From assembly GCF_037902255.1 (NCBI RefSeq), contig NZ_CP147990.1, forward strand, positions 2,430,001-2,462,000: a stretch of DNA of 32,000 nucleotides, read 5' to 3'. The notes under the pieces were generated by a model. It was not told the DNA's origin. It did not search any database and saw nothing but the letters and a program-made list of their open reading frames with translations. Both the position numbers and the translations under genes were made by a program. The stretch comes from Candidatus Electrothrix sp. GW3-4 (GTDB lineage: Bacteria; Desulfobacterota; Desulfobulbia; Desulfobulbales; Desulfobulbaceae). Numbering within the stretch: the stretch's first letter is position 1; each line of letters starts with the position of its first letter. Positions 13,547-32,000 of this stretch are shown one piece after another.

Positions 13547-14947
13547 TCAGGCAGTCCCACTACTAATCCCATTACTAATATAGGGCGCTATTTCTTCCGG
13601 TTTCAGACTGCATTCTTCCATACCCAAGGCCCGAAGTTCCTCAAGAGAACGAGGGAGCAGGCATGAGTCTGGATCCTGCAGGATTATCTTTCCCCCATGC
13701 GTGACAACGGCTTCCATCCCCTCCTTCATATTCTGCTTCACCCCGCTGAGAAAAAGCACCGTTAATGCTGTCCCGAATATCTCGGCAGCAGAACAGAGTA
13801 AACTATCAGTATCAATCAACTGCATTCCGTCATCACTCTCTGGGCCTGTCAACACAGGAATACCGTCGTCAGAGATGATGACTTCTCTCCGCCCGTGACA
13901 ATTGCCTACCAGACATTGCCCACCCAGCAACTTATTTGTTTGAAGCGAGGTCGTGGCAGTGTACTTGGTAAAATTATCAAGGTATGCGGTCAGGTACTGC
14001 TCAATACCTGGATACATATTCTGCAAGACTAATACTGACATATCGTGTTCATACTGTAATGCAGGGATAATCTTCTGCAACTCCAGCATTCCGCCAAGGC
14101 CCCCCAGTATCAACAGCAGCTTCTCTGCTTTTTTTTCTGGCTGTTCCTTGGTTGCGGGATCAACTGGTTTCAATTTCTTGGCCCTGCTGACATTATCAAC
14201 ACAGAACTCTTTAACATTGAGAAGAAGATATTGCAGGCGCTTGCCGATCAGATCCCATGATTCTGGGCTGGTAGGCTTAGCAACCAGATCCACGCATCCA
14301 TAGCGCATAAAATCCATCATTCTCGAATAATGCTGATCATTAAAATTACTGACCAGCACCACTGGTGCTGGGGAGCGTATCATGATATGCTTCAGCGCGA
14401 CATCACCACTCATGACAGGCATAGTCATGTCCAGGGTAACAAGATCCGGGACCTGCATTTCCAAAAATTTCAGCGCCTCTCTCCCGTTTGTTGCCGTCCC
14501 AACCACCTGGGCATTGATCTGTTCTTCAAAGAGCTTAATAAATGCCTTGGTAAAAAAACGGGAATCATCCACCACCAGGACCTTCGGCAAAAGTGACTCT
14601 TCTTCAGAGGGCATTTTGCTTTTGTACTGCTCATCAATACGGCGAGCTGCCTCAAGTAACAGAAAATTCCACGAGGAATCAATGGTCCGGACATTGGTAG
14701 AGGCAAAGAGCATGCTAAAGGTGCCTGAAGGCCAGCTCATAATACGATAAAAGGCCTCTTCTCCGGTTAACTCACCAAATTCAGCATGAATAATTTCATT
14801 ATCAGAAAAATAAAGGACCCCACGATTATCTTCGCTGAGTACACTGAGCTTTCTGTCATCTCCAGCAAGGCAGGCAAACTGAACAAGATCCACTAACCCC
14901 AGCCCTTCAATCTCACCGACAAAACCGCTTCCAACAGGATGTTTCAT
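13547..14947 (-). CDS. three-domain protein: DUF4388 + receiver (REC) + degenerate CheB-methylesterase-like domain
   Basis: The N-terminus GEIEGLGLVDLVQFACL..GVLYFSDNEIIHAEFGELTGEEAFYRIMSWPSGTFSM has the DUF4388 pattern. REC is intact: VVDDS, TLDMTMP (D173), LVAKP (K224). The C-terminal region aligns to CheB but reads LGGLGG where GASTGG is expected, LQNMYP where QHMP is expected, and LSGVKQNMKEG where TGMGxDG is expected. Confidence 0.85.
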   Translation of the reverse strand: MKHPVGSGFVGEIEGLGLVDLVQFACLAGDDRKLSVLSEDNRGVLYFSDNEIIHAEFGELTGEEAFYRIMSWPSGTFSMLFASTNVRTIDSSWNFLLLEAARRIDEQYKSKMPSEEESLLPKVLVVDDSRFFTKAFIKLFEEQINAQVVGTATNGREALKFLEMQVPDLVTLDMTMPVMSGDVALKHIMIRSPAPVVLVSNFNDQHYSRMMDFMRYGCVDLVAKPTSPESWDLIGKRLQYLLLNVKEFCVDNVSRAKKLKPVDPATKEQPEKKAEKLLLILGGLGGMLELQKIIPALQYEHDMSVLVLQNMYPGIEQYLTAYLDNFTKYTATTSLQTNKLLGGQCLVGNCHGRREVIISDDGIPVLTGPESDDGMQLIDTDSLLCSAAEIFGTALTVLFLSGVKQNMKEGMEAVVTHGGKIILQDPDSCLLPRSLEELRALGMEECSLKPEEIAPYISNGISSGTA

Positions 14948-14981
14948 ATAAAGGTACTTTTTTCAACTATAGAGAATTCTC

Positions 14982-15749
14982 TTACAACGCATTAAAGGTG
15001 ACATGTGTTGCGATAAAAACCAACATAAGAACAAAGAATTCTTTAAAATGAGTTTCAGGAACCCTTTGCAGGAGCCTCGATCCCACCTGCGCACCAAGCA
15101 AAACGCCGAGAGCTCCGGGTATAACAACCCGCCATTCTATGCTCCGGCCAAACAGCACATGGACACTCAATGCTGTCACTGAAAGAATCATCATCAGCGC
15201 AATACTGGTCGAAACAGATCGAACCATGGCCAGTTTGCACCGCATATTAAAAAACGGCACCAGCCAATCCCCTACGCCTATCCCAAGAAACCCGGTCAAT
15301 ATGCTGCCAAGCAGGGTTATTAACCGTCCCCGATGCGCTGCTTCAAGATCTGCCGTATCCGAACCTGCAACAAAGAAATCATCTCCGCGAAGAAAGACAT
15401 AGGCAATAAAAAAAATCGTCAGGCCAAGAAAAAGCTCTATCCACACCGGCTGCAGGAGCAAGGAGAGCAATACCCCGAAGATAACAGCAGGGATGCCAAA
15501 AGTAACCAGCAAACGAACGAGCCGCCAATCAATCATCCCGGCTCGATTATTCGTATACGATGCACTGAGCTGACCGAAAAACTGAATCACAAGAGTACAG
15601 ATCACCGCGTCTTTCGGATCCAAGTCCGTGCTCATCAGCAATACGGGCATCCACAGAACCCCACCGCCCAAGCCGAAGAACATAGCGACAGAAGCAATTG
15701 CCACGCCGATTGGTAGCATCTGCCAAAATTCAAAGGCCCCGCCTAACAC
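14982..15749 (-). CDS. TauE/SafE (TSUP) family membrane permease
   Basis: An ~8-TM hydrophobic protein with the family-typical GLGGGVLWMPVLL motif near the N-terminus. The GTG start at 15749 overlaps the upstream stop by 7 nt (alternative ATG at 15719). Confidence 0.85.
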   Translation of the reverse strand: MLGGAFEFWQMLPIGVAIASVAMFFGLGGGVLWMPVLLMSTDLDPKDAVICTLVIQFFGQLSASYTNNRAGMIDWRLVRLLVTFGIPAVIFGVLLSLLLQPVWIELFLGLTIFFIAYVFLRGDDFFVAGSDTADLEAAHRGRLITLLGSILTGFLGIGVGDWLVPFFNMRCKLAMVRSVSTSIALMMILSVTALSVHVLFGRSIEWRVVIPGALGVLLGAQVGSRLLQRVPETHFKEFFVLMLVFIATHVTFNAL

Positions 15750-16321
15750 CGGTAAAAACTCCTGCCGAATTCAGACAAAGCATCTTCCAGCTCATCAAGG
15801 ATCTCCACAGCTTCAGCAACCTTTGTTTCCTGCTCTCCGTCGATCAGGGTCTGGCGAAGCTGCTCACTCATTCCCTTGGCCAAGAGGATCAACTCCTGCT
15901 CATTGGCATTGAGTTCATTAATATGCCGAGCCAAATCGCCGAGTTCATCTCTGCTTTGTTCCGGCAAAGTTGTGGAGAAATCACCAGCACTCATTGCCCT
16001 GGTTCCCTCGATAATGCGCTCCAGGGGAAACATGATTCTCTTGGTGAAGAGCATCATAACCAAACCAATAGCAAGGAGCAGGTTCCCGAGCATTACACGT
16101 ACTTTCAGGAGGATATACTTAACAAGGTCAGCTGACACTTCTGGTGAGGCGATATCATTGAGGGTGCCGAGAATTTTTTCCCCGTAAAGAAAGCTGTTCA
16201 TCTCCACAGCCATCGTCAAAAACACAACTCCGATAAAGACAATATAAAAAACCAACTGGCGCTGCAGCCCGCTTTTCGGCAAAAAACGTTTGAGGACCAT
16301 CTTGTCAAGTTTTTTTATCAA
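15743..16321 (-). CDS. small membrane protein with a HAMP domain and acidic coiled-coil tail (no output domain)
   Basis: Two hydrophobic segments, then a HAMP-like stretch (PLERIIEGTRAMSAGDFSTTLPEQSRDELGDLARHINEL), then ~60 aa of acidic helical tail. It overlaps the PilZ gene by 17 nt if ATG 16321 is the start. Confidence 0.7.
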   Translation of the reverse strand: MIKKLDKMVLKRFLPKSGLQRQLVFYIVFIGVVFLTMAVEMNSFLYGEKILGTLNDIASPEVSADLVKYILLKVRVMLGNLLLAIGLVMMLFTKRIMFPLERIIEGTRAMSAGDFSTTLPEQSRDELGDLARHINELNANEQELILLAKGMSEQLRQTLIDGEQETKVAEAVEILDELEDALSEFGRSFYRC

Positions 16322-16727: not shown

Positions 16728-16834
16728 TGCACTCTAAGTAATCAGAACAATCCGTTGTTACTGGCCATGAGCATCCTTGCACGTCCCATCAGCCTCGTTA
16801 CTCAAAAAAGCATCTCAACGATATATTTCTCCTG

Positions 16835-17869
16835 TTATTGAAGAAGATCATCTATGGTTTCAACATGATCTGTCTTAGCCTTTTTTGCAAACTGCTGGTC
16901 CACCAGACCGTCGATCTTATTATTATCAATCAGCTTATAGCGTACCATCAAATCTGCAATCTCCTGGATTTCTTCCATTTTCGGGAGGTACTGATCATAA
17001 ATTGTACGACCTCCTGATGCATGCAAGGCATACTTCACCAAATCTACAGGCTGGGACCAATATCGGGCCGCAATCTCAGCTGCTTCATCAGGATGCCTTT
17101 CTGCCCATATGCCTGATCGAACCGCCCCATTGACAAATTTTTGGACGAGATCGGGGTCTTGTTCGATCAGGCTTTGCTTGACAATAACAAGATTGCAAAT
17201 GAATGACTTCCAAACCTCCTCAACATTAAAAAGAAGATTTGCCTTGCCGGTTTTCAAGGTCTGGACAGCAAAAGGTTCACCAACATAGTAGGCATCAAGA
17301 GCACCAGTCACTAAGGCAGAGGCCATATCAGGGGGATTGAGCTCCACAATATTGATCTCCCCACGCATATTATTTTCTTCCATCAAGCGCAACAAGCTGA
17401 GATTATGGCCTGAAAAACGCATGGGAACAGCGACCGTTTTACCAGCCAACCCCTGAATATCATGGACATTCAAATCCTTCCTTGTGACAAGGGTACTCTC
17501 ATGCCGATTACCTATATAGACGATCTTGACGTCTACTCCTTGCTGGCGAAGAACAATAGAGAGAGGAGCAATGATGAAGGCTACCTGAATCTTGTCATTC
17601 CGAAGCGCCTCCCCCATCTCAGCAAAGGAACTGAATTTTAAGGCCTTAAATCGAACATCGCTCTCGTTGGTGCTGGCATAATCAAGCAAGGGTGCCGCCA
17701 TATTAGTGATAACAGGCATATAGCCCATTTTCACAATCTGTTGGTGGCCGTGATCAAAATTCAGCCACCAGTGAAGTCCAGAGATGAGCACTCCCCAGAC
17801 AACACTCCCTAAAACAAAACTCCAGGTTCTTGACCAGGTGAACTTCTTCTTTCCATTATTAGACGGCAT
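16835..17869 (-). CDS. NitT/TauT-family (NMT1-like) ABC substrate-binding protein with an N-terminal membrane anchor
   Basis: The overall pattern matches nitrate/sulfonate/bicarbonate-type binding proteins. The N-terminus WSFVLGSVVWGVLISGLHWWL looks like an uncleaved TM anchor. The start overlaps the ATPase stop by 11 nt. Confidence 0.8.
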   Translation of the reverse strand: MPSNNGKKKFTWSRTWSFVLGSVVWGVLISGLHWWLNFDHGHQQIVKMGYMPVITNMAAPLLDYASTNESDVRFKALKFSSFAEMGEALRNDKIQVAFIIAPLSIVLRQQGVDVKIVYIGNRHESTLVTRKDLNVHDIQGLAGKTVAVPMRFSGHNLSLLRLMEENNMRGEINIVELNPPDMASALVTGALDAYYVGEPFAVQTLKTGKANLLFNVEEVWKSFICNLVIVKQSLIEQDPDLVQKFVNGAVRSGIWAERHPDEAAEIAARYWSQPVDLVKYALHASGGRTIYDQYLPKMEEIQEIADLMVRYKLIDNNKIDGLVDQQFAKKAKTDHVETIDDLLQ

Positions 17870-18653
17870 AGCTCACTCCAAGCATCAAGAAGAGTTCGTC
17901 TCGGAGTTTACTCAACTCTGTTTGTTTGTTAAAGACAATTCTCGGATGGGGAAAATCCAGCTTACGGTTCATTTTTACCTGTGAGGGGCGTTTACTGAAG
18001 ACCACCACCCGATCCCCCATGATGAGCGCATCATCGATATCATGGGTCACGATAAGAATCGTTTTCCCAAGGAACTGATGCATATTTACCACCTCTTCCC
18101 GCATTTTCATATGGGTGAGAAAGTCAAGCCCACTAAAAGGCTCATCCATGATCAGGACATCAGGGTTGACAGCCAAGGCACGGGCCAGCTCTGCCCGTCG
18201 CTGCATCCCTCCTGAGAGCTGGCGCGGATAATGGTTTTCAAAGCCATCCAACTCCACCATTTCAATATATTCCTGGATCTCTGTCTTCTTTTCGTCGGCA
18301 TTCTCCATGTGTCGCAGCCCCAGTTCCACATTCTGCCAAACGGTCATCCACGGCAAAAGGCCGCTGTGCTGAAAGACAAAGATATTATCTGAACTCGGAC
18401 CGGTAATCTCTTTGCCGTCAATAAGAATGGACCCCGAGGTCTGTTTATCAAAGCCAGCGATGATACGGAGAAGTGTCGATTTACCGCAGCCAGAAGGACC
18501 GAGCAGGCAGACCATTTCCCCTTCTTCCACTTCAATATTGACATTGTCAAGCACAGAAACCTTTTCGCCATAGGGAAGTCCATCATCCTCGCGCTTTCTC
18601 TTTCTTCGGTTGACAAACTCTCTGCTCAGATTATTGATCTGAATATGTCCCAT
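17859..18653 (-). CDS. NitT/TauT-family ABC transporter ATP-binding protein
   Basis: Carries Walker A GPSGCGKSTLLRIIAGF, the signature LSGGMQRR, Walker B LIMDEPFSGLD and the H-loop VTHD. Confidence 0.9.
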   Translation of the reverse strand: MGHIQINNLSREFVNRRKRKREDDGLPYGEKVSVLDNVNIEVEEGEMVCLLGPSGCGKSTLLRIIAGFDKQTSGSILIDGKEITGPSSDNIFVFQHSGLLPWMTVWQNVELGLRHMENADEKKTEIQEYIEMVELDGFENHYPRQLSGGMQRRAELARALAVNPDVLIMDEPFSGLDFLTHMKMREEVVNMHQFLGKTILIVTHDIDDALIMGDRVVVFSKRPSQVKMNRKLDFPHPRIVFNKQTELSKLRDELFLMLGVSYAV

Positions 18654-18665
18654 TTTTTTGCTCCC

Positions 18666-19445
18666 CTATGCCTGTCTGATGCCCCAGGATGCAGACTCAA
18701 TCCTGCCAAGACGGCGCATAATATAGTCCAAGTACAGGCCGATCAGGCCGATAACGATCATTCCGTCCATAACGTAATCCAGCCGCAGCCCGTTTCTTGA
18801 ATCAAGGATCAGATAACCCAGTCCTGACTGGACCGCGATCATCTCAGCGGCAACCACAACAATCCAGGCAATGGTGACGGTCAGGCGCAGTGCTGTAATA
18901 ATATCGGGAATGATGGCAGGAATAACTATTTTCTGAATCACCTCTTTTCTGCTGAAATTAAAATTGGCTGCAACGTAAAAATAGGTGGGATTGATCGAAT
19001 GAACAGCAACGGTCGTGGAGACGACAATAGGGAAAAAACTGGCAAGAAAAATCAGAAAGACGGCTGGTTGATCACCAATCCCAAACCAGAGCATTGCCAA
19101 GGGTATCCAGGCCAAGGGAGATATAGGGCGGAGAAAATTGATAATCGGATTCAGCAGCATGGAGGCAAGCTGGCTTTTTCCCAAAATAATTCCCAAAGGA
19201 ATACCGAGGATTGCAGCAAGATAGAATCCCCAGGTTACTCTGAATAAGCTGGCCACCGTATGCTTGAACAGAGAACCATTGGCTATCAGCTCAAGCATAC
19301 TCTCCATGACCTTGTACGGTCCGGGCAGTACATTGGTATCCCAGCCGCTGTAACGAACGGTAAGCTCCCAGAGCAAAACCAGAACTGTGAACGACAGAAC
19401 CGGGGCAATGCTTTTTGTGAGCGTAGAATGTGCTTCTGTGTTCAT
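18666..19445 (-). CDS. NitT/TauT-family ABC transporter permease
   Basis: A six-TM hydrophobic protein of the binding-protein-dependent permease type, 259 aa. It is followed after 12 nt by the ATPase gene. Confidence 0.85.
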   Translation of the reverse strand: MNTEAHSTLTKSIAPVLSFTVLVLLWELTVRYSGWDTNVLPGPYKVMESMLELIANGSLFKHTVASLFRVTWGFYLAAILGIPLGIILGKSQLASMLLNPIINFLRPISPLAWIPLAMLWFGIGDQPAVFLIFLASFFPIVVSTTVAVHSINPTYFYVAANFNFSRKEVIQKIVIPAIIPDIITALRLTVTIAWIVVVAAEMIAVQSGLGYLILDSRNGLRLDYVMDGMIVIGLIGLYLDYIMRRLGRIESASWGIRQA

Positions 19446-19468: not shown

Positions 19469-20380
19469 TTATCCGGCAAGCTCCCGGGCTAGGGCCTGAT
19501 ACTGCTCAGCAGATCTACTCTTTTCATCGTAGTATTGAATAGGAAGATTAACGATGTGTGACTCCTGCATCTTATCGTCGAGCTCAATAACCGTTTTACA
19601 GAGCATCGCTCCGTACTTACGATGAATCTTTTCATTGACCACCCGCTCCGATGTCTTCTTTGCATCAAACATGGTGATAAGAACCTTATATTCGACATCA
19701 TGGTCAATCCCCTTCAATACTTTAATAATGTCGCTAATTTGGGACACGCCGTGCATTGAAAGATATTCGCATGTGGTCGGCACGATAACGAGTTGTGCGG
19801 CCATCAGGGCATTTAAGGTAAAAAACTCTATCGATGGCGGAGTATCTATCAAGATATGGTCATAATTTTTTTCAATCTCCTGTAATTTGTTTCGCAGTAA
19901 ATACTCAAAATTATGCTGGCTCAAATAACGTTTTTTCAGCAACGCCATCTTACTGTTCGAGGGAAGTAAGGACAGGTTAGGATATTTCGTGTGGAGAATA
20001 ATATCACCTATCCCCTTAACCTCTTTGTTTAATAACTCATAAAAGGATCGAGTCTTTCTAAAGCCCAGCAGTATTGTCAAATTCGCCTGCACATCAAAGT
20101 CAACCAACAACACCTTCTTCCCCATGCGTGCTAAGGCCGCTGCCAAATTAAGGCAGGTGGTTGTTTTGGCAACCCCGCCTTTCTGGTTACTCACGGTAAT
20201 AATACGGTGATCATCCGGGGCTACTTCATCCTGCAGGAGGAAGGAATCATCAGCAGGGTCATTTTTGTACACCGTAAACCTATGATTACACTTGTGACAT
20301 CGCACCTTCAATGCCGGTTTATTAATTATATCGTCAGCAACCCTATACCTGGTTTTGCAATTGTCGCATGTAATAATCAT
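19469..20380 (-). CDS. ParA/MinD-family ATPase with an N-terminal MJ0042-type zinc ribbon
   Basis: The N-terminus MIITCDNCKTRYRVADD..VRCHKCNHRFTV has two CxxC pairs in the MJ0042 pattern. It is followed by the deviant Walker A ITVSNQKGGVAKTTTCLNLAAALA and LLVDFDVQANLT, typical of ParA/Soj. Confidence 0.85.
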   Translation of the reverse strand: MIITCDNCKTRYRVADDIINKPALKVRCHKCNHRFTVYKNDPADDSFLLQDEVAPDDHRIITVSNQKGGVAKTTTCLNLAAALARMGKKVLLVDFDVQANLTILLGFRKTRSFYELLNKEVKGIGDIILHTKYPNLSLLPSNSKMALLKKRYLSQHNFEYLLRNKLQEIEKNYDHILIDTPPSIEFFTLNALMAAQLVIVPTTCEYLSMHGVSQISDIIKVLKGIDHDVEYKVLITMFDAKKTSERVVNEKIHRKYGAMLCKTVIELDDKMQESHIVNLPIQYYDEKSRSAEQYQALARELAG

Positions 20381-20733: not shown

Positions 20734-21771
20734 CTAGCGGATAACTGACTCAATCACCTCAGCAAGCTTTGCTTCTTCAGTAACCAAATCCACTTTATTT
20801 CGCTTAATTGCAGTATCAGTCAGGCTGGGATACACACAGGTCTCGACACTTTGCGCTATAGTCTTACCGGATTTTTCCTGAATCGCGGCAAACCCTTCCG
20901 ATCCGTCCTCCCCGTATCCTGTGAGCAAAACACCAACGGTATTTTCCCTGAACACCTCAGCAGCTGAGCGAAAGAAGGTATCGAGCGGATTCTCCACTCG
21001 ATCACCAAGCTGAAAACAGGGGTCTCCGTTTTCGTTGAGTCCAACGGTCAGGGAAGCCATATTCGATTGAATATAGCAGACCCCCTGCTCCAGGACTGTC
21101 CCCTGACGAGCCACTTCTATTTTCCAGCGGACAAATTCGTTGAATTTGTCCGCAAAGGCAGCAAGGATTTTGGGAGAAATTTCCAGAAGAATAACAGCAG
21201 CGGCAGGCAGACCGGCATTAAGCCTGGTCATCAGACGAATAAAGGTATTGGGGCCAGTTAACGAAGTTCCTATGGCAATAAGATAGTCAAGGGGGTGAAA
21301 ACCATACAGGTCAGCAAGGCCTTCCTCCTTTTTGTGTTTATAGATCCGGACTCGGCGTATATTCTGAAAATTAACAGCTGAAGCAAGCTTGATGCGGTCA
21401 ACAATATGCTGTTTGGCTGTATGAATATCGCTCGATATTGCCCCAGAGGGTTTTGCAACAAAATCGACAACCCCAAGTCGGAGGGCTTCAAAGGTGATAG
21501 ATCCGTCACTGAAGAGCGAGCTCAGCACAACGATAGGAACCGGAGATTCAATCATGATATGGCGGACGGCCTGCAGCCCGTCCATGACCGGCATATCAAT
21601 GTCAAGCGTGATGACATCAGGATGAAGTTCCTTTATTTTTTCTAGCCCCTCCAGGCCGTTGTTTGCAACCCCAACCACTTCGATATCAGGGTCTGATTCC
21701 AGCAGATCACTGATCGCCTTGGTCATAAAGGTTGCATCGTCAACAACAAGAACCTTAAGTTTTTTATCCAT
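20734..21771 (-). CDS. REC-CheB-like protein (methylesterase domain lacking the catalytic His)
   Basis: REC is intact (VVDDATF, ITLDIDMPVMDG, DFVAKP). The C-terminal domain aligns to CheB. IGTSLTG keeps the Ser, LLEISP replaces QHMP (His to Glu), LTGYGEDG keeps the Asp, and TCVYPSLT replaces SCVVFGMP. The start is set at ATG 21771 (MDKKLKVLVVDD). Confidence 0.85.
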   Translation of the reverse strand: MDKKLKVLVVDDATFMTKAISDLLESDPDIEVVGVANNGLEGLEKIKELHPDVITLDIDMPVMDGLQAVRHIMIESPVPIVVLSSLFSDGSITFEALRLGVVDFVAKPSGAISSDIHTAKQHIVDRIKLASAVNFQNIRRVRIYKHKKEEGLADLYGFHPLDYLIAIGTSLTGPNTFIRLMTRLNAGLPAAAVILLEISPKILAAFADKFNEFVRWKIEVARQGTVLEQGVCYIQSNMASLTVGLNENGDPCFQLGDRVENPLDTFFRSAAEVFRENTVGVLLTGYGEDGSEGFAAIQEKSGKTIAQSVETCVYPSLTDTAIKRNKVDLVTEEAKLAEVIESVIR

Positions 21772-21873
21772 ACCGCAGCTTCCCCCCGTTCTGGAATCCA
21801 TCACGTAACAATATTATTTCGCTGTCGTTTTTGTCACCGGTTCTAATCTTTCCTAATCTGCCTGACAGAAAGC

Positions 21874-24800
21874 TTAATGAACCGGCTGTGGTGTCTCCGT
21901 AGCACTGCCTTTTTTCCGTTTAAAATTCAACGAACGCTGTTCCTGGCGAACGACTTGGTTTTCTTTTGCTATTTTTACAAGCTCAGGGATATCCAAAATA
22001 AGGGAAATACCACCGTCACCCAGAATAGTCGCACCGCCGAAGCCGCTTTCAACCCTCAGGTAATCGGCAAGCGGCTTAATAACCACCTCTTCCTGACCAA
22101 GAAGTTCATCAACAACGATGCCCAACTCCTGGGTTCCGGTACTCACCACGACAACAAACATCTTGTCTTCATCCTGCCCTTGGCGATCAATATTATAAAT
22201 TCTGGCAAGCTGAAAAATAGGCATTGTATTATCACGAAGATGAATAACATCAACACCTTCTATTTCGGAAATCTCATCCCGGAAGACCCTCAGGGTTTCC
22301 TCAACCGTGGTCAGAGGAATGGTAAATTTCTCCTGACCAACCCGCACCATCAAGGCCTGAATAATAGCCATGGTGAGCGGAATCTTGATGCGAAGCCGTG
22401 TTCCTTTTTCTGCCTCAGAAATAATTTCAACGGTACCGTTCAACTTCTCGATATTCTTCTTCACCACGTCCATGCCCACGCCACGGCCGGAAGTTTTGGT
22501 CGCCTTTTCAGCCGTACTGAAACCAGGCAACATAATCAGGCGCGTCAACTCCTGATCAGACATCCGCATCACTTCTTCCTTCCTGATAAGGCCTTTTTCC
22601 AGGGCCTTTGCCTTGATTCTCCTTGTATCAAGCCCCCTACCGTCATCGGTGATCTCCAGCACAATATGATCACTCTCGTGGAAGGCCTCAAGAAGGAGCG
22701 TTCCCTGAGCAGGCTTACCTACCCGCAGACGCTCCTCAACCGTTTCGATGCCGTGGTCAACAGAGTTTCTGATAATATGAATCAAGGGATCTGAGATAGA
22801 CTCAATGACCATCTTGTCAAGCTCAGTTTCCTCACCTTTGGTAACCAGCTTAACATCCTTATCCGTGTTATGGACTAAATCTCGTACCAAACGAGGATAG
22901 CGCTTAAAAAGCTGGTCAATGGGCAACATTCTGACCTTCATTACCCCTTCCTGCAGTTCATTGGATACACGGCCGAGATGAACACCTGCCTCGCTCAGAC
23001 GGAAAGAAAACTCATGAAGCGGCTTCAGTTGACTTTTTGTAACCCCCGAGGACTCAAGCAGCTGCTGCTCCAACCCTCGCATCTCATTAACAAGCTGAGC
23101 AAAGTAGGCCCTGCTTACAACCAGCTCTCCAACCTGATTCATGAGATAATCAATTTTCTCAGCATCTACCCTGATGCTGCTGCGCACAGTTGCTTTTTGG
23201 GCAGGCCCCTGCCTGTTTTCTTCCTCCTCAGCATGCTGCTTAAGGACCTCGGATTTTATAAAATCCAGTGTATCATCGGCTGAGCCAGGTACCTCGCTTT
23301 TTTCTTCAGCAACGTCCTCAGTGAGAGGTGCTTCCAGGGCATCATCATGCTGATCATCCCTGTTCTCCATTTCATCATCAGCTGCTGCCGCTTCAATCGC
23401 ATCTGCTCCATTTGAGGCCACAACCTTATCTAATAAATGACCGCCTGCCCCCAACGCAGGGGTCTCTGCTCTGTCATCAGGAGTTGCTGACTGCTCCATC
23501 CCAGCCTCTGCCCGTGCACCTTGACCATGTTCTCCTTCCTGCTCTGGAGCTTCTATAATCTCTTCTATAACGCTGTCTATGGAATCCTCTGAAACGCCAG
23601 CTGCATATTCCGACACCTCTAAGGCACTGCTGAGCTTATCAAAAAGCGCCTTTTCTTCGGAACCGCCACCATCACCATGATCAGTTTGGTCCGTGCTCCC
23701 TTCAGGAGTTCTTCTTTCTGGCTCTGGCTTATCAGCCTCTCCCTTGTCGTCTCTCTTCTCCTCGGGAACGCCCGCAACAGAGACATCATCCCCCCCTTGT
23801 GAGCTAGCAAAAGCGACCATACCCTTGTCGGCTCCAGAAAAAGTCTCATCATTTCCAAAACCTCCATTTTCTTCCCCGGAGAATTCACCGAGCTCTTGTT
23901 GCCCACCATCCCCGATAATCTGAGGATATACCCCGATGATCTTATCAACAAACTCCTGTAGCCCGGCAATGATATCCGATGCAATACCGGCGGAGACATC
24001 AGCAAGATATCCTTCAACAACACTCTGCCATAGCTCGCAAAAAGATGTCAGGCTGGCATACTCCATATAATTGGCTGACGAGGCGAGGTGTCCAATAGCA
24101 TCATGACAATTATTGAGTATTGTTTTTTTATCACCACCTGCCTGGTATTCTCCAATCCTGGCCTGGATATATTCAATATCGGTCTTTAATTTCTTCAGAA
24201 AAATAGAAATCAGCTCTTCGTCATACTCATCATCGGAAAGTTCGTTATTAAGGGAAAGGGCTTCTACGTTAGGTTCTTCCCGAAGTGAACCATCAGGATC
24301 CATTGCAGATATGGAAGCGGCCTCCTCACCTGGCATCTCACCATCCAGGCTGAGGATATCCCCCCCCTTTTCTCCAGCTTCAGACATCCTGGGGTGTTCA
24401 TCAGAAAATATCGAATCCAAGGCCCGGTCAAGATCAATACCCTGAGTTTCCCCCTCTTCTTCTGGCTGATCATCGCAGGTTCCGTCATCGAGCTCAATAA
24501 GACTCTCTGAAACAACAGCTGGCTCCTCATCGGAAAAAATGGAATTCAGGGCTGAATCAATAGAGGCTGTATCATGTTTTTCTTCTCCTGAGTTATCAGC
24601 GAGTATATCTGCATCATCCTGCGAATAGCCCTCCATTGCCTGGGGAAATGAACGGATTATCTCGTCCAGATAATCCTGCATGAATGAGAGGTTAGGCATT
24701 CTGCCACTTGAGAGCTGCTCAACCGCATTCTCAATAGCATGCTGCCAGTTGGAATAATGCTGGGTAAGCTTTTCATAGCCCATATAGTTGGCAGACGACT

Positions 24801-25446
24801 TAAGACTTTTGATGGAGTCGCTGCAGCGGTACAGAACATCCTGCTTGTCCACAGAGATAGACAGTTCAACGGTCTGGGCATAGAGAAAGGGGATGTTTTC
24901 TTTCAGCTGCTGAAGAAATATATTATACAGTTCCTCATCATACTCATCAGACATGTTTTCTTCAGCGAGAAGACCTGTCCTCACTACTTCTGGGTCCTCC
25001 TCAGGAGGCTCATCTTCTCCAGAGGCTGTGTCGTCGGGTATCCTCTCATCTTCAGCTGCCTCCGTATCGCCTTCAACAACTCGCCGTATCTGCTCTACAA
25101 GATCAGACACCTCGGTCTCCTCGGCCTGGGTACGCTCAAGTTCGTCAACCAAGAGCGTTATCCGGTCTTTACCGGCAATCAGCAGGTCCGTAATGGCCGT
25201 ATTCAGCGTAATCTCGTTGCGACGAATAAGGTCAAGCAGATTTTCCAGTTTATGAGACAGTTCAGAAACTCGCTCAATACCAACGAATTGAGCCGCTCCT
25301 TTGATGGTATGGATGGAACGAAAAATTTCATCCATCACCTCTTTATCTTCATAATCCTGTTCAAGCCGGAGAAGACTGCTTTCCATCTCTTCAAGATGTT
25401 CAGCTGCCTCAACAATAAAATCCGGTAACATTGATGAGTCTATCAT
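21874..25446 (-). CDS. cheA: chemotaxis histidine kinase CheA, unusually long (~1190 aa), with one canonical and two degenerate Hpt-like modules
   Basis: Hpt P1 is FRSIHTIKGAAQFVG (His49). P3 is IRVDAEKIDYLMNQVGELVV. P4 has DPLIHIIRNSVDHGIE, DDGRGLD and GRGVGMDVV. A C-terminal CheW-like P5 is present. About 650 aa between P1 and P3 consist of acidic linkers plus two paralogous helical modules. ATG 25446 follows GGTGGA; the ORF is open from GTG 25455. Confidence 0.92.
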   Translation of the reverse strand: MIDSSMLPDFIVEAAEHLEEMESSLLRLEQDYEDKEVMDEIFRSIHTIKGAAQFVGIERVSELSHKLENLLDLIRRNEITLNTAITDLLIAGKDRITLLVDELERTQAEETEVSDLVEQIRRVVEGDTEAAEDERIPDDTASGEDEPPEEDPEVVRTGLLAEENMSDEYDEELYNIFLQQLKENIPFLYAQTVELSISVDKQDVLYRCSDSIKSLKSSANYMGYEKLTQHYSNWQHAIENAVEQLSSGRMPNLSFMQDYLDEIIRSFPQAMEGYSQDDADILADNSGEEKHDTASIDSALNSIFSDEEPAVVSESLIELDDGTCDDQPEEEGETQGIDLDRALDSIFSDEHPRMSEAGEKGGDILSLDGEMPGEEAASISAMDPDGSLREEPNVEALSLNNELSDDEYDEELISIFLKKLKTDIEYIQARIGEYQAGGDKKTILNNCHDAIGHLASSANYMEYASLTSFCELWQSVVEGYLADVSAGIASDIIAGLQEFVDKIIGVYPQIIGDGGQQELGEFSGEENGGFGNDETFSGADKGMVAFASSQGGDDVSVAGVPEEKRDDKGEADKPEPERRTPEGSTDQTDHGDGGGSEEKALFDKLSSALEVSEYAAGVSEDSIDSVIEEIIEAPEQEGEHGQGARAEAGMEQSATPDDRAETPALGAGGHLLDKVVASNGADAIEAAAADDEMENRDDQHDDALEAPLTEDVAEEKSEVPGSADDTLDFIKSEVLKQHAEEEENRQGPAQKATVRSSIRVDAEKIDYLMNQVGELVVSRAYFAQLVNEMRGLEQQLLESSGVTKSQLKPLHEFSFRLSEAGVHLGRVSNELQEGVMKVRMLPIDQLFKRYPRLVRDLVHNTDKDVKLVTKGEETELDKMVIESISDPLIHIIRNSVDHGIETVEERLRVGKPAQGTLLLEAFHESDHIVLEITDDGRGLDTRRIKAKALEKGLIRKEEVMRMSDQELTRLIMLPGFSTAEKATKTSGRGVGMDVVKKNIEKLNGTVEIISEAEKGTRLRIKIPLTMAIIQALMVRVGQEKFTIPLTTVEETLRVFRDEISEIEGVDVIHLRDNTMPIFQLARIYNIDRQGQDEDKMFVVVVSTGTQELGIVVDELLGQEEVVIKPLADYLRVESGFGGATILGDGGISLILDIPELVKIAKENQVVRQEQRSLNFKRKKGSATETPQPVH

Positions 25447-25591
25447 ATTCTCCACCTTGTAACTCTCTGATTATTCTTATATCCAGAACACATACCAACT
25501 ATCCGGTGCCTTCCTCAGCCGTAACCAGCACGCTCTTTTTGCGTCTTTCTCACATTTTCCAGCCAATCAGCAACAAATATTTCCTTTCAGC

Positions 25592-26221: not shown

Positions 26222-26460
26222 AGGCGACAAATCCGTTTTAAGATGAATTTTGTGGCGACCAGCAAAAACCGTCCCCCACTACACTGCCCGCAATTTTCTC
26301 CAAGGTCATGAGACGTTACATCTGTACCCTATCAATCTCCCCATGTTCAACATACGCTCTACGCAAGGTCTTCTTCTCTATAGAAGGTCATGAACGAAAA
26401 TACCGTAAAGACAGCTACCGTATACCCTCACAGTATACCCACGGTCCCGGTGGTCGGGAT

Positions 26461-26826
26461 CTAGTCCTCTGCTTCCGATTTCTCTATCATCTCCAAAATC
26501 TCTCTCGCCTTATGCTTGCTGGCAAAGCCCCTTGCTCCAAGGGCCTCAACTTCAGCCCGGTATATATCTTCATCAAGATTTGAAAGGAAGATGATATGGG
26601 CGTCGCTGTCATAGCGTAAAATCTCCTTTGCAGCAGCAAGGCCATCCATTTCACGCATAGTGATATCCATAGTAACGATATCGGGCTTCAGAGACTTATA
26701 TAACTCAATAGCCTCCAGGCCATTTTTCGCCTGCCCCACCACAATATGGCCCGGCGGCTGTAACAGTTTTGCGATCATCTTACGCATCATAGATGAATCA
26801 TCAACTATCAGAACTCGCTTACTCAT
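26461..26826 (-). CDS. cheY: single-domain response regulator CheY
   Basis: A 121-aa stand-alone REC with LIVDDSSMMR, VTMDITMREMDG and the receiver fold pattern. It lies 4 nt downstream of cheW. Confidence 0.9.
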   Translation of the reverse strand: MSKRVLIVDDSSMMRKMIAKLLQPPGHIVVGQAKNGLEAIELYKSLKPDIVTMDITMREMDGLAAAKEILRYDSDAHIIFLSNLDEDIYRAEVEALGARGFASKHKAREILEMIEKSEAED

Positions 26827-26830
26827 CTGG

Positions 26831-27343
26831 TTATTCTCCGTCTATTGCCTTAAGCTGCTTTAATTCATCTGCAAGGAGGATACGGTTAAAATCAAGCAGG
26901 ATCAGAAGGCTTTCACCGATATCGCAAACACCTCGTATATATTGATTGGCAAGTCCGGCCACAACAACTTCTGGTGGAGGCTCAATGGTACTTTCCACTA
27001 TTTTCAGAACCCTGGTGACAGAGTCCACAATGAATCCGGTCACCCTGCTATTAATATCCAGGATCAATATCCAGGCATCTTCGGATGCGCTGTCCTCACG
27101 AAAGAGATTCAGCCGCTTCCTCAACTCAATAACAGGAATAATATTACCGCGTAGATTAATAACACCTTCTATGAAATCAGGTGAGTTTGGTACAGATGTA
27201 ATAGGAGCTGAACGGATAATCTCCTGTACCATGAGAATATCTACCCCAAATTGTTCATTACCGATGGTAAAACCGACCAGCTGCATAAGCAGGTCTTTTT
27301 CTTCCTGGTCGGTCATTTTATCGGCTGCAAAAGTATCAGCCAT
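26831..27343 (-). CDS. cheW: chemotaxis coupling protein CheW
   Basis: A 170-aa protein with the CheW-domain pattern LVGFTIGNEQFGVDILMVQEIIR..ITSVPNSPDFIEGVINLRGNIIPVIELRKRL. Confidence 0.9.
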   Translation of the reverse strand: MADTFAADKMTDQEEKDLLMQLVGFTIGNEQFGVDILMVQEIIRSAPITSVPNSPDFIEGVINLRGNIIPVIELRKRLNLFREDSASEDAWILILDINSRVTGFIVDSVTRVLKIVESTIEPPPEVVVAGLANQYIRGVCDIGESLLILLDFNRILLADELKQLKAIDGE

Positions 27344-27447
27344 GGATTTTCTCCTTTCTTACGATTAACTGCCCTGCAGACCTTTGTTTCGCTGGCCTGC
27401 AGCAACGTACATATTTCCTGCTCTCATTCCCCGCGCCTGCAAAAGGT

Positions 27448-27489
27448 GTATCGCTCTGCGCCCCCAGGCCAGGAGACACAGAGCGATAC
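27448..27489 (-). other. 11-bp perfect-stem hairpin in the MCP-cheW intergenic region
   Basis: gtatcgctctg (27448-27458) pairs with cagagcgatac (27479-27489) around a 20-nt loop. It lies 34 nt downstream of the MCP stop on the transcribed strand. Only a short tttt follows, so it may be a partial terminator or processing/stability element. Confidence 0.4.
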
Positions 27490-27523
27490 GGCGACAGAAC
27501 AAAAAAACAGACAAAAGGTGCGC

Positions 27524-30500
27524 TTAGAGCTTAAACTGCTCAACCTGATGACGCAGTCTCTCAGAAGCAGCCTGCAACTCATCGGTAATGGACACAACCA
27601 CACCAGCGCCCTCAACCGTTTTTTGCGCTCCTTCAAAGGACTGTTGGGCAATCCTGACCGCATTCTGCGAACGCTCACCCTGAGCAGCAACCAATTCACT
27701 GAGCTGATCAGTACGACCCACAATCTCACGCATTTCAGAGTCAATGGCACTGGAACCGGCACTTGCTTCCGATACCAGGGCACTAATGATCTGAGACTGC
27801 TGAACCATAGAGGAAAGCGCTGACTCAGCTGCCTGACGACGAGCACCCTGCTCACCAGCCATCTTGGAGATCTCTTCTGCCAATTTGTTCAGTTCCTGAA
27901 CCAGGGTCTGGACGCTCTGGATATCGCCTTCAACAACCTGAGCAACCGCTGCAATCTCCTCAATGGAGCGCATATTATTACGACCGCTGGCGTCAATCTT
28001 GGAAAGAGCGTCCTGCAGTTCTTCAGAGTACCGTGTTCCTGCCTCAACGCTGGCAGCAGAATCTTTAATCAGCTGGGTAATCTCCTTGGCAGCTTCAGAG
28101 GAACGCTGCGCCAGTTTACCAACCTCGTCAGCAACAACCGCAAAACCCTTACCATGGGCACCGGCACGGGCAGCCTCAATAGCGGCGTTCAGGGCCAGCA
28201 GGTTTGTCTGCTCGGCGATTTCTGTAATAACGCCGATGATTTCAGAGATCTGACCAGAGGACTCGGCAATAGCCCGCATACCAGCAACCGTGTTTTCCAC
28301 CGCTGCCCGACCATCACTGGCTGCCTCCAGAGCCTCCTGACCCTGAGCCGTGGCAGCCTCTACCGCCTGGCCCATGTTCCGAACAGCTGCGGTAATCTCA
28401 TTCATGGATGCGGTCACCTGCATAACCATTTTACCCTGCTCATTGGAGGTGGACACAACCATGGCACCGGTTTCACCCATGGCACCCACACGATCAGTGG
28501 CGGTTTCCGCTTCCTCGGACTGTTTGATAACCGCGTCACTCACCGTATCCATGGATTGGAGCAGCTCTGCAATGGTTTGCTGAGAACGCTGCGCACTCGC
28601 CTGCTGCGCCTTGGCACCTTCAGCAACCTGACCCGCGGTCTGTCCCATGGTCTGGAGCAGCTCTCTGGTTTTCTCGGACTGCTGGGCCTCAACCTCAGCA
28701 CGATCCCTGTTCGCAGATGCACGACCAGCCACATTATCAGCGTTGGCAGCAACGGCCTGGGATACGGTCTGGACCTCGGAGAAGGCCGCGTTCAACTCAA
28801 CCAGCATATTGTTAAATTCGTCCGCCATCTGACCAATCTCATCAGTGGAGGTCGTCTCTACCTTCAGGGTGAGGTCACGTTCCGCAGCAACCTGACGAAC
28901 AACGTCAGCGATACGCACAATCGGGCGGGCAAAACCACCCCCAACAAACCAGGCAACAGCGAACACGATGACCGCAATAACAAGACCAATACCCAGGGCC
29001 TGGAGGCGCAGGGTGGTGATAGCGGCTAGGGCCTCGTCCACATCGATCTTGGCCTCAATCAACCAGTCAAAATCCGTATTCAGGGCCTTGGGCAGGTCCA
29101 GCTTAACAGCAGAGGAGAGAATAGGAACCCCCCGGTAATCCACAGATCGTTCCGTTACACCGGTATCAGAGCGGAAGGCGTCCGCAACAATGGTCGAGGT
29201 CAGTTTGGATTCAAACAGGGTCAGGCCCAGGCGGGAATCAGAGCGGGTCAGATGATCCTCACCCACGAGAAAGGACTCACCCTTCTCACCCAGACCGGCG
29301 CGCTGATCAACCAGGGCCTGGATATCGTCGTTGGTCAGACGGATCGCCACGATGGAAACCAATTGGCCCTGCTGAACAACCGGGGCCGCCACAAAGGCCA
29401 GGGGCTTATTGGCCGGGGCATAATGGGCGTAGTCCGTCATGGCTGTGCGGCGGGTCTCCTTGACCTGGCGGACCAGACGACCCAGGCCAGTGTCTTTCAG
29501 ATCCCCGGTCATGAGATTATTATGGTATTCCTGTTCCTTCTTGACCGAGTAATAGCAGTATCCGTTCGGCTCAATGAGATAGAGGTCAAAATAGTTATAG
29601 CCCTTCTGAACCTTGGTCAACAGGTCCTCGGTCTCCCCCTCATGGGTCGGGTTCATAACATCGGCCAGGGGACCGGTGGTGATCAGACCCCAGCGAAGAC
29701 CAGAAATATCCACCGTTGTATAGGTGGACAGCTCAAAGTCGCCGGTACTACCAACCTTGTACATAACGCCTGACTTGCCAGCCAAGGCCGCCTCGGAATC
29801 CTTGCCCGGTTTCAGATCACCGATCCGGCCCTCTTTGACCACGCGGTCAGAGTGCAGCTTAGGTGCGCCAGGATCACCGACCAGGTAGGACTCAAAGGTC
29901 TCAACCATCCCCTCACGCTCCTGGACAATGGCGTTGATCTCCTGGGAGGAGAGCTGGAAGGCCCCCACCCCGAGGAAGCGTCCTCCCTCCATAATCGGGG
30001 CCCCGAGAAAGAGGGACTGCTGATTATTAGACGGGGCATAGGCGCTATAATCCTCAAGAGCTGCCTTTTTCTCTACCTTGATCTTGGCAAAGAGGCGACC
30101 CAGCCCGGAATTGCGCAAGGCACCGTCCTCCACGTTCTGGCCCAGATCAGACTCACCAGCATGGGTGTAGACTACATCCCCATCGGCAGCAATGAGAAAG
30201 ACGTCGTAATAGCCATGCTCTTCGACAAAGGAGGCAAACATGGGGCCGTATTTCTCTTTATAGCCGTTCCAGAGGCTGCCGCCAACCTTGCCCCCCTCTT
30301 CATGAAGGGCCTCGCCAAACTCCTGGATGGCGTTCTGGGTACTGAGGTTTTTCGTCATCATGGTGGCGTCAGAAAAACGCTTGCCAAAATAGCGCTCCAG
30401 GGCCGCTTTCTTCAAGGCCTCAATACCCAGTGTCTTCGCAACAGCATCGGCACGAAGACCCTGAATAACCTCAGAGACCATCTCAATATCAGCATAGGCC

Positions 30501-30718
30501 TCCCCCAGGTAATCCACAATCTGTCCTTTTTTCAGGTCGCGGATACCCTCCAGCTGGTTATCAGCACGTGCCTCCAGGGCCTTGGCCGCCTGCAACTGGT
30601 CAACAAAGGCGTTGACCAGAAAGGGCAAAAGACCAACGGCGAGCATGATCGCAACCAGCTTACCGCGAAGTCCCAGACCTCCAAACCAGCCGGAAGTCGT
30701 CCTCTTCAAATTTTTCAT
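27524..30718 (-). CDS. methyl-accepting chemotaxis protein with two tandem Cache-like periplasmic modules, HAMP and a very long signalling domain
   Basis: TM1 is at ~20-38. The periplasmic region of ~535 aa holds two paralogous modules ([30 protein letters not shown] and [31 protein letters not shown]). TM2 is at ~575-596. HAMP is [28 protein letters not shown]. The conserved hairpin is [39 protein letters not shown] strong SD (GGAGGAGGGG) precedes the ATG. Confidence 0.92.
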
Positions 30719-30823
30719 ACTTTCCCCTCCTCCTGTCTGTTTTCCGATAGTACCGATGGACCGGCTGCTACTGTCCGGTACCGGGCCTCGTTCTGCCGCA
30801 CTCCAAAGAACATGCCTCCATAC

Positions 30824-30856
30824 CTCCTTATGGGCTCCTTATGGGCTCCTTATGGG
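30824..30856. repeat. three perfect tandem copies of the 11-bp unit CTCCTTATGGG (minus strand CCCATAAGGAG)
   Basis: Direct reading gives copies at 30824-30834, 30835-30845 and 30846-30856. They lie in the 207-bp gap upstream of the MCP gene. Confidence 0.95.
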
Positions 30857-30876
30857 ATTTATATTATTTCTTTAAT

Positions 30877-30905
30877 ATATATCGGTATATCTTAAATATT
30901 GCAAT
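30877..30905 (-). promoter_or_regulatory. candidate sigma-70-type promoter for the MCP-cheW-cheY unit
   Basis: On the minus strand, TTGCAA (30905-30900), a 17-nt spacer and TATATA (30882-30877). This would place the 11-bp repeats in the 5' leader. Confidence 0.3.
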
Positions 30906-30925
30906 TGGATCCGTATTTTTTTTTC

Positions 30926-32000
30926 TCAGGCAGCCATTTCCCCTGCCGAGCTCGCCAGCACGGCCTCAATACTCTTGGGAATTCCCGTATCTGCCAGCAG
31001 TTTGGCCCCAGGGCAGCGGGCTGCTACGGCCCCGGGCATCTCCCGGTACAGGCTCCCTGCCGGATCCTGGACAATCCCGGTCCCACCGACCCGCAAGACC
31101 TCCTCCATCCCCTCTCCTCCATCCTCACCCATCCCGGACAGGACAACAGCCACACTTTTCTCTTTTATTCGCTCGGCCACAGAGTAGAAGAGCATATCTA
31201 TTGACCCCCTGCGCGTGGCAAAAGGGGCTTGAGAAAGATGGAGCACCAATTCCCCCTCCAGCTCATGTACGGTCAGGTACTCATCGCCTGAGGCAAAATA
31301 GCAGACCCCGGCTTCAATCCGGGCGTTATTCTCTGCCCGCCGGATAATCAAGGGGGAAAGCCGGTTGAGATACTTAACAAAGGAATCCAGATGGCGAGAA
31401 GGGGCATAGAACATCACCAGGTATGCCACAGGAAACTGGGCAGATAAATGAGGCAGGAGCTTGAGTAAGGCCCCGTAACCGCCTTCTGCAACGCCCAGGG
31501 CGACAAGCCGTTCGCAGCGCTGACCTGCAAGGGCAAGCGCATCTTTCTTTTCCTGACTCACGGCCCGCACATATTTCACCGCCTCCAGCTCAACTTCCGC
31601 TGCCAGACGCACCTTACGCTCGATCTCGCTGGTCTGCTCCTCAAGATTTATCTCTCCGGTATTCGAGGGCTTAGCAACAAAATCCACTGCCCCGTATTTC
31701 AAGGCATCAAAGGTAACGTCAGCCCCTTCTACAGTCATTGAGCTCAACATCACGGTAGGAGTAGGGGCCTGGATCATCAGGTGTTTGATCGTTGTCAGGC
31801 CATCCATAACCGGCATTTCCACATCAAGGGTCACCACGTCTGGTTTGAGCTGGGGAATGATCTGCAACGCCTCTTCCCCGTTCTCTGCTTCGCCAACAAC
31901 TTCCACAACAGGGTTGTCTTTAAAGATATTGGCAATGACCTTTCGCATCATTCTGGAGTCATCGACAATAAATAAATTAATCTTCTGATCAGCAGCCTTT
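30926..32000 (-). CDS. REC-CheB-like protein (catalytic Ser and His both replaced); 5' end outside the window
   Basis: The reading frame stays open to the window edge (..KAADQKINLFIVDDSRMMRK), so the true start lies beyond 32000. REC is intact (IVDDS, VTLDVEMPVMDG, DFVAKP). In the CheB-like domain, GVAEGG replaces GASTGG (Ser to Ala), VMFYAP replaces QHMP (His to Tyr), and LSGMGEDG keeps the Asp. Confidence 0.85.
   Translation of the reverse strand, partial: KAADQKINLFIVDDSRMMRKVIANIFKDNPVVEVVGEAENGEEALQIIPQLKPDVVTLDVEMPVMDGLTTIKHLMIQAPTPTVMLSSMTVEGADVTFDALKYGAVDFVAKPSNTGEINLEEQTSEIERKVRLAAEVELEAVKYVRAVSQEKKDALALAGQRCERLVALGVAEGGYGALLKLLPHLSAQFPVAYLVMFYAPSRHLDSFVKYLNRLSPLIIRRAENNARIEAGVCYFASGDEYLTVHELEGELVLHLSQAPFATRRGSIDMLFYSVAERIKEKSVAVVLSGMGEDGGEGMEEVLRVGGTGIVQDPAGSLYREMPGAVAARCPGAKLLADTGIPKSIEAVLASSAGEMAA

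Follow-up and report, generated by a model that had tools for sequence, protein, structure and literature searches.

Can CheB homologues be kept in a chemosensory pathway for a purpose other than catalysis? Textbooks explain the memory of bacterial chemotaxis by CheR, which methylates receptors, and CheB, which demethylates them, and the question is raised by a gene cluster of the cable bacterium Candidatus Electrothrix sp. GW3-4. The cluster occupies positions 13547-32000 on the minus strand of a 32,000-nucleotide stretch of DNA (contig NZ_CP147990.1, positions 2,430,001 to 2,462,000; hereafter the window), and all positions given below refer to this whole window. It encodes three response regulators with a receiver (REC) domain and a CheB-like domain, which we denote paralogues A, B, and C. 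The explanation we favor, with a probability of about 0.6, is that this is a conserved and taxonomically widespread chemosensory cluster in which the CheB homologues are kept as non-catalytic, phosphorylation-controlled pseudoenzymes, with no linked CheR.

According to the open reading frames and their Pfam matches, 15 consecutive minus-strand genes fill the region. In transcription order, which is followed here, they encode C, MCP, CheW, CheY, a HAMP protein, CheA, B, ParA, the permease, ATPase, and binding protein of an ATP-binding cassette (ABC) importer, a PilZ protein, a second HAMP protein, a TSUP permease, and A (Table 1). The chemosensory core is complete, with MCP, CheW, CheA, and CheY all encoded together (Pfam MCPsignal; CheW; Hpt, H-kinase_dim, HATPase_c, and CheW; Response_reg). 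A preliminary description of the region, made without database searches, had listed the same 15 genes, including the Che core, a zinc-ribbon ParA, two HAMP-only proteins, PilZ, TSUP, and the ABC importer, and this inventory stands.

The catalytic residues were read from HMMER (phmmer) alignments to Salmonella CheB (1A2O), with Ser164-His190-Asp286 as the reference triad; the proteins were also aligned to Pectobacterium CheB (6YMZ), and the codons were checked in the DNA. The corresponding positions are Leu284/Asn310/Asn406 in A, Ser181/Glu208/Asp300 in B according to both references (codons 21262-4, 21181-3, and 20905-7), and Ala415/Tyr442/Asp537 in C (601-aa numbering; codons 31487-9, 31406-8, and 31121-3). 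The triad is incomplete in all three paralogues and likewise in the orthologues of A and B, and the orthologues of C are mixed. The patterns read by eye in the preliminary description (Ser-Glu-Asp, Ala-Tyr-Asp, and none of the three conserved) are exactly those of the alignment, and the receiver residues that it had reported as intact (DD, D, and K) are kept in A, B, and C, as is the S/T residue.

The CheB-like domains of A, B, and C all match Pfam CheB_methylest (PF01339) above its gathering score of 24 bits (Table 1), and all three remain below the 293-bit cutoff of the NCBIfam CheB family PRK00742 (A 142.5, B 256.9, and C 291.3 bits). For A, which diverges most among the three, the AlphaFold (AF2) model reaches a mean predicted local distance difference test (pLDDT) score of 88.4. 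Its top Foldseek matches are full-length CheB (6YMZ and 1A2O; target template modeling (TM) scores of 0.75-0.81) and the catalytic domain 3SFT (TM 0.81). Both domains of the model superpose jointly on full-length CheB, which, being a prediction, is weak evidence. Judged from the profile matches and this model, the CheB fold is retained in A, B, and C despite the loss of the triad, and we infer that enzymatic activity has been lost.

Two of the paralogues carry additional N-terminal domains. A fits a PatA-type layout, in which an N-terminal PATAN domain (DUF4388; cutoff 25 bits) is followed by REC. C runs beyond the window, and its complete form was read from a public contig (L001) that is 100% identical to positions 20708-32000 and reaches 8.5 kb past the window end. 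Full-length C is 601 aa long, starts at about 32731, and consists, from N- to C-terminus, of a pseudo-receiver, a weak PATAN match, REC, and the CheB-like domain. Its N-terminal receiver-like domain (L001:7813-8250, approximately window 32294-32731) matches Pfam REC with 34 bits, and Asn apparently replaces the phospho-acceptor Asp when the sequence is read by eye (VLVLNLNAEN). C would then appear to join a pseudo-receiver and a pseudo-CheB domain in one protein. The preliminary description had the REC and CheB-like domains of all three proteins right but missed the extension of C, the PATAN domain of A, and the start of B, which is probably the ATG at 21771, giving 345 aa as in the B orthologues.

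The degenerate triads are shared with relatives. We scanned one genome per species with B, which gave 80 loci, and annotated the loci with the window proteins; the censuses reported here cover 89 loci. B itself is 91-95% identical to Candidatus Electrothrix proteins, which places the window in a marine cable bacterium, and its 120 closest homologues (61-94% identity) belong to Thermodesulfobacteriota and the gammaproteobacterial Competibacteraceae. His is present at the triad position in none of these 120 homologues and in none of the 89 locus copies. The family pattern is Ser, Thr, or Asn, then Glu or Asp, then Asp, with Ser or Thr at the nucleophile position in 118/120 homologues and 80/89 locus copies and Asn, Gln, Asp, or Gly in some orthologues. 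The receiver residues DD/D/S/K are 100% conserved in the 120 homologues, and mean identity in REC is 83%, versus 62.5% (minimum 51%) to the window protein across two phyla in the CheB-like domain. In the latter, 57 of 178 columns are at least 90% conserved, and the invariant positions include the remodeled active-site motifs GT[ST]LxGPN, EISPK, and LLTGxGxDG.

The A family behaves similarly. Its 120 closest homologues (38-90% identity) are all PATAN-REC-CheB-like where full length; one exception aside, the Ser position is taken by a non-nucleophile and the His position by Asn, Asp, or Gln. An intact triad occurs in 0 of 50 locus copies, and one His is found among 121 aligned sequences. With a mean identity of 51%, the family is looser than B yet clearly constrained. 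Purifying selection thus acts on the CheB-like domains. A search of 1.8 billion representative proteins with the CheB-like domain of B gave only six matches below 1e-30. Among the best 150 (50%-identity representatives) nearest to this domain, 111 aligned rows are Ser-His-Asp; the remaining rows fall into a few degenerate types, including [S/T]-E-D, as in B, and [A/G/S]-Y-D, as in C. Since the degenerate states are kept in orthologues while 111 aligned rows are canonical, the pattern is not one of chance.

The C family holds intact, half-lost, and fully lost triads in one orthologous group. Over the loci, Ala/Tyr/Asp occurs 29 times, Ala/His/Asp 12 times, Ser/His/Asp seven times, and Ser/Tyr/Asp four times, along with a few other states. 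All cable-bacterial copies are Ala/Tyr/Asp, and the seven intact ones include that of Desulfonema limicola. In a neighbor-joining tree, which carries no support values, the four states are interspersed, and this suggests that the ancestor of C was an active enzyme and that Ser and His disappeared on several occasions from a protein that was itself retained. The seven intact orthologues imply in turn that the ancestral system probably did modify receptors, and the repeated losses make catalysis look dispensable.

Not only the proteins but also their gene order is strongly conserved. The 80 species-level genomes with the cluster (53-95% identity to B) include Electrothrix, Electronema, Desulfocapsa, many Desulfobacterales (among them Desulfonema limicola and Desulfatitalea), Methylococcales, and Contendobacter, and thus span Desulfobulbales, Desulfobacterales, Methylococcales, and Competibacteraceae in two phyla. 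The consensus order is C-MCP-CheW-CheY-(HAMP)-CheA-(A)-B-ParA-(HAMP-TSUP)-ABC permease-ATPase-binding protein-(PilZ). Every Electrothrix or Electronema locus recovered carries the cluster, and the 15-gene order is identical in Candidatus Electrothrix scaldis. ParA directly follows B in most of the 80 loci. Many loci of Thermodesulfobacteriota keep HAMP protein 1 in its place after CheY and before CheA, the pairing of HAMP2 with TSUP is likewise found in many loci, and the substrate-binding protein is kept in the cluster across the two phyla. One genome of Competibacteraceae and a metagenome contig related to it encode, in this order, a PatA-like regulator, a C-like protein (Ala/Tyr/Asp), MCP, CheW, CheY, CheA, a B-like protein (Thr/Glu/Asp), the ABC permease, ATPase, and binding protein, and PilZ. 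ParA, the ABC importer, HAMP, and PilZ therefore belong to the cluster. The preliminary description had named a gene order confined to this genome as evidence that would speak against it; we found the opposite, with the order kept far beyond the cable bacteria.

No CheR, CheD, CheC, or CheZ domain was found by Pfam in the cluster genes or the scanned flanking open reading frames, as the preliminary description had noted for the window, nor was a CheZ, CheC, or CheX phosphatase found in the cluster. That a cheR gene is missing only because the window ends too early was considered and rejected, since the called genes of the following 8.5 kb on the identical contig L001 include no cheR, and no cheD, cheC, or cheZ either. 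CheR is likewise absent from the five loci that were annotated with Pfam and from the unassigned open reading frames of the seven loci with an intact C. In addition, an E. coli CheR sequence was used as a probe against all open reading frames (filters off) and by tblastn against the DNA of the 89 loci. It gave nothing better than E = 0.015, and these best matches fall in receiver regions. A faulty probe was rejected as the cause, as the sequence scores 202 bits with Pfam CheR. CheR may be encoded elsewhere in these genomes, and for flagellated Desulfobacterales and methanotrophs this is quite plausible.

The receptor was analyzed for the substrate side of the same chemistry. The MCP signaling domain comprises about 60 heptads, approximately 30 per arm counted from the hairpin tip, with 211 residues from tip to C-terminus. 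The protein has no C-terminal pentapeptide, and nowhere does it match the strict consensus for methylation, [ASTG][ASTG]xx[EQ][EQ]xx[ASTG][ASTG]; one partial site lies at 735. Where C is degenerate, most MCPs, including all cable-bacterial ones, also have zero strict matches, and the three loci with both a scorable MCP and an intact C (L047, L064, and L089) have two each. This hints that the enzyme and its substrate sites degenerate together.

Several points weigh against the pseudoenzyme explanation. Loss of activity is read from sequence, and the hint of joint degeneration comes from three loci, including two close relatives. The interspersed states of C come from a tree without support values, and C matches PATAN with 24.7 bits, just under the cutoff of 25. 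CheR is absent from all sampled neighborhoods, with whole genomes not searched for cheR, cheD, or a canonical cheB; moreover, the seven C orthologues with a full triad also have no CheR nearby, and a missing neighboring cheR is therefore no proof that modification is absent. The residues of B add to this list and lead to an unlikely alternative, in which B at least is still an enzyme whose non-canonical Ser/Thr-Glu/Asp-Asp triad deamidates or demethylates receptors, with CheR supplied from elsewhere in the genome or with deamidation only. In B, the acid that stands in for His and the Asp of the triad show practically no variation, the nucleophile position is predominantly Ser or Thr, and the cleft motifs around the active site are highly conserved. 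A non-canonical hydrolase is conceivable. Ser-Glu-Asp triads are known in other hydrolases, e.g., sedolisins; the intact C orthologues indicate that the system once used catalysis. However, Ser and Thr swap freely in B and are replaced by Asn, Gln, Asp, or Gly in some orthologues, which is unusual for a true nucleophile. No CheR occurs in any of the 89 neighborhoods, the cable-bacterial MCP offers no strict modification motif, and A and C of this genome cannot use the Ser/Thr-Glu/Asp-Asp set.

Alternatively, A, B, and C might act mainly as phosphate sinks that drain CheA and so shape the kinetics of phosphorylated CheY, with the CheB-like domains as inert passengers. The fully conserved catalytic residues of the receivers, the position of the receiver as the most conserved part, and a cluster without CheZ, CheC, or CheX would fit such a role, but single-domain receivers would suffice as a sink. 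Neither would an inert domain keep so many columns conserved in B across two phyla, or family-specific replacements at the old active site, or a confidently predicted CheB fold in the most divergent paralogue, and we regard this explanation as improbable. The same conservation decides against the view that the CheB-like genes are functionless, decaying relics in a cluster that is being lost. All three have lost catalytic residues and C has done so stepwise across lineages; however, intact reading frames, high identity in 80 species and two phyla, invariant receivers, and conserved synteny leave next to no room for decay, and we rejected it on these data.

The pseudoenzyme explanation translates into a candidate mechanism. 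The dCache chemoreceptor, possibly aided by the NitT/TauT-type binding protein and transporter, would control CheA via CheW, and phosphorylated CheA would pass phosphoryl groups to CheY and to the receivers of A, B, and C, which are intact. Phosphorylation would free the CheB-like cleft from the receiver, as in real CheB, and the freed cleft would bind the old substrate region of the receptor or another partner without hydrolysis, providing a reversible feedback that replaces adaptation by methylation. The N-terminal PATAN domains of A and C would pass the signal to type IV pilus or gliding machinery, the ParA-like ATPase would position the array, and cyclic di-GMP (c-di-GMP) may enter as a further input through the PilZ protein. 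Receptor binding, feedback, pilus output, and the roles of ParA, PilZ, and the ABC importer are all things that we infer.

The preliminary description had proposed an output in positioning or c-di-GMP functions. The PATAN domains in two paralogues point beyond these alone to a type IV pilus output. In Synechocystis, the one organism for which such binding is known, a PatA-type PATAN domain binds PilB1 and PilC and suffices to switch the direction of phototaxis, and the chemosensory systems concerned also have no CheR and CheB (10.1101/2021.06.11.447907). Gliding and chemotaxis to oxygen are both documented for cable bacteria (PMC7873302; PMC12449579). It is possible, though doubtful as a whole, that phosphorylation-gated, non-catalytic clamping of the pseudo-CheBs on the receptor array replaces methylation, that the PATAN-tagged ones couple the array to a type IV pilus or gliding motor, and that this so far unclassified, widespread pathway steers the oxygen- and sulfide-guided gliding of the flagellum-less cable bacteria.

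Table 1. Genes of the chemosensory cluster in transcription order, with window positions and the matches on which each assignment is based.
Feature	Position	Strand	Evidence
Paralogue C, REC + CheB-like	30926..32000 (gene continues to ~32731)	-	Pfam CheB_methylest 126-127 bits, REC
Chemoreceptor MCP, 1064 aa, dCache periplasmic domain + HAMP + MCPsignal	27524..30718	-	Pfam MCPsignal 136 bits, HAMP, dCache_1
CheW coupling protein, 170 aa	26831..27343	-	Pfam CheW 129 bits
CheY single-domain response regulator, 121 aa	26461..26826	-	Pfam Response_reg 83 bits
HAMP-only membrane protein 1, ~209 aa	25592..26230	-	Pfam HAMP 34 bits
CheA kinase, ~1190 aa: Hpt, acidic linkers, dimerization domain, ATPase, CheW-like domain	21874..25455	-	Pfam
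Paralogue B, REC + CheB-like	20734..21804	-	Pfam CheB_methylest 124 bits
ParA/MinD-type ATPase, N-terminal MJ0042-type zinc ribbon	19469..20380	-	Pfam AAA_31 180 bits, Zn_ribbon_4 47 bits; NCBIfam MJ0042_CXXC
ABC permease, NitT/TauT family	18666..19445	-	Pfam BPD_transp_1
ABC transporter ATPase	17859..18653	-	Pfam ABC_tran 124 bits
Substrate-binding protein, NMT1/SsuA-like, hydrophobic N-terminal segment	16835..17869	-	Pfam NMT1_2 71 bits
PilZ-domain protein, 140 aa	16305..16727	-	Pfam PilZ 42 bits
HAMP-only membrane protein 2, 192 aa	15743..16321	-	Pfam HAMP 45 bits
TSUP/TauE-family permease	14982..15749	-	Pfam TauE 147 bits
Paralogue A, PATAN (DUF4388) + REC + CheB-like	13547..14947	-	Pfam DUF4388 57 bits, REC 62 bits, CheB_methylest 63 bits

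Among the accessory proteins, ParA carries the deviant Walker A motif KGGVAKT. The ABC importer belongs to the NitT/TauT group and reaches no substrate-specific cutoff: the best NCBIfam matches of the permease (SaoP, NtrB, and TauC) are all below cutoff, and the binding protein scores 136 bits with SsuA_fam, below its cutoff of 163. The strict co-conservation of binding protein and transporter suggests a role in sensing or effector transport. Both c-di-GMP-binding motifs can be read in the PilZ protein (RRKSPR for RxxxR and NVSETG for NxSxxG), and these putative sites are the sole hint of a c-di-GMP link. CheA contains two internal Hpt-like repeats (24586-24975 and 23896-24255, minus strand) that score 13-14 bits over the whole model, which is sub-threshold. 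By eye, they seem to have no phospho-His, and long acidic low-complexity linkers lie between them. The gammaproteobacterial CheA orthologues are approximately 350 aa shorter.

Before 13547, the window holds housekeeping or unrelated genes (M48 peptidase-TPR, NikR, LpxC, LpxK, NAD synthase, and others). The gene of the nickel-responsive repressor NikR (11463-11873, minus strand; NikR_C 115 bits) lies downstream of the cluster, with just the M48-TPR peptidase gene between it and A. In three Electrothrix loci (L003, L010, and L011) M48 likewise comes after A, and in L003 NikR adjoins it as well. Three open reading frames of 199-376 aa at 59-2916 on the plus strand have no Pfam match or a sub-threshold HU-like DNA-binding domain (25.7 bits). 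Upstream of C, contig L001 encodes an NAD-metabolism protein, a HEAT-repeat protein, a ferritin, a ketoacyl synthase, and two proteins that combine a cyclic nucleotide-binding domain with PATAN. The latter two genes adjoin each other (L001:675-2927, 5-8 kb past the window end) and represent a second class of PATAN protein near the cluster. A scan of the window with Rfam gave no RNA family, and a promoter and terminator scan remained at background level and is uninformative on operon structure.

In other genomes, further genes accompany the cluster. Dissulfurirhabdus thermomarina and another Thermodesulfobacteriota genome have three tandem REC-CheB-like genes beside CheY and CheA; none of the six proteins has the His, and MglA-like, MglB-like, and PilB-like (MshEN) genes are close by. 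MglA- and MglB-like genes also follow the cluster in several Desulfobacterales. We found an MglA-like (Arf/Ras) and an MglB-like (Roadblock) gene beside the cluster at L008:1460-6642 and L009:1639-6745 and in L034, L038, L042, L049, L054, L062, L066, and L070. In L008 and L009 an extra unassigned gene of approximately 570 aa lies between them, and several of the other loci contain a second ParA. A PilB-like ATPase adjoins in L008, L009, and L026, with the MshEN domain in L008 and L009. Two loci are unusual. In Desulfococcaceae bacterium HSG9 (L055), CheA-A-B-ParA is present twice, inverted, on one contig. A 9.7-kb contig (L031) of a metagenome-assembled genome labeled Synechococcaceae cyanobacterium carries a gammaproteobacterial-type cluster with 62% identity to B, and the label probably reflects wrong binning, not an occurrence in cyanobacteria.

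The most economical reading of these data is a chemosensory pathway that is built around pseudo-CheB response regulators and is apparently undescribed. In the searchable full text of the literature we found neither this cluster nor the che genes of cable bacteria described, nor any CheB family with a degenerate catalytic site, although a description may exist in the subscription literature; a comparison of Geobacter che clusters and a preprint on CheW domains contain nothing on inactive CheB. Databases label the cluster genes simply as CheB or response regulator. Two or three CheB-fold regulators that are kept under strong selection in 80 or more species from two phyla, with the catalytic residues and a linked CheR gone, suggest a second, non-enzymatic use of the CheB fold. 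The C family catches this transition midway, and its intact, half-lost, and fully lost triads offer natural controls. For the control of oxygen chemotaxis and gliding in cable bacteria we found no account, and since every recovered cable-bacterium locus carries the cluster, it is a concrete candidate control system.

The three paralogues resemble canonical CheB (Salmonella 1A2O and Pectobacterium 6YMZ) in their two-domain architecture, their fold, the intact phospho-acceptor residues of the receiver, and the location of their genes beside CheA, CheW, and MCP. They differ in their incomplete triads, their NCBIfam scores below cutoff, the absence of CheR nearby, and the extra N-terminal PATAN or pseudo-receiver domains of two of them. 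ParA-like ATPases that position arrays are encoded in che clusters elsewhere, specifically Vibrio ParC and Rhodobacter PpfA, and the ParA/MinD-type ATPase with its deviant Walker A motif inside this cluster may position the array by analogy. In contrast to ParC and PpfA, it has an N-terminal MJ0042-type zinc ribbon, and no ParP-like partner was recognized.

The type IV pilus systems of cyanobacteria (Tax/Pix) share with the cluster an MCP-CheW-CheA core, one plain CheY, PATAN-REC regulators, and the absence of CheR-based adaptation from the cluster, in hosts that move by surface motility and not by flagella. Here, however, the PATAN-REC proteins end in a CheB-fold domain, PATAN is absent from a third protein of the REC-CheB-like type, CheA lacks a C-terminal receiver, and the cluster includes ParA and an ABC importer. 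A parallel for the proposed feedback is CheV, a receiver-containing adaptor that provides methylation-independent feedback. As in CheV, a phosphorylatable receiver fused to a domain that binds the receptor or the array could give feedback without CheR/CheB chemistry, with the difference that the predicted binding domain is a CheB fold and not a CheW-like domain.

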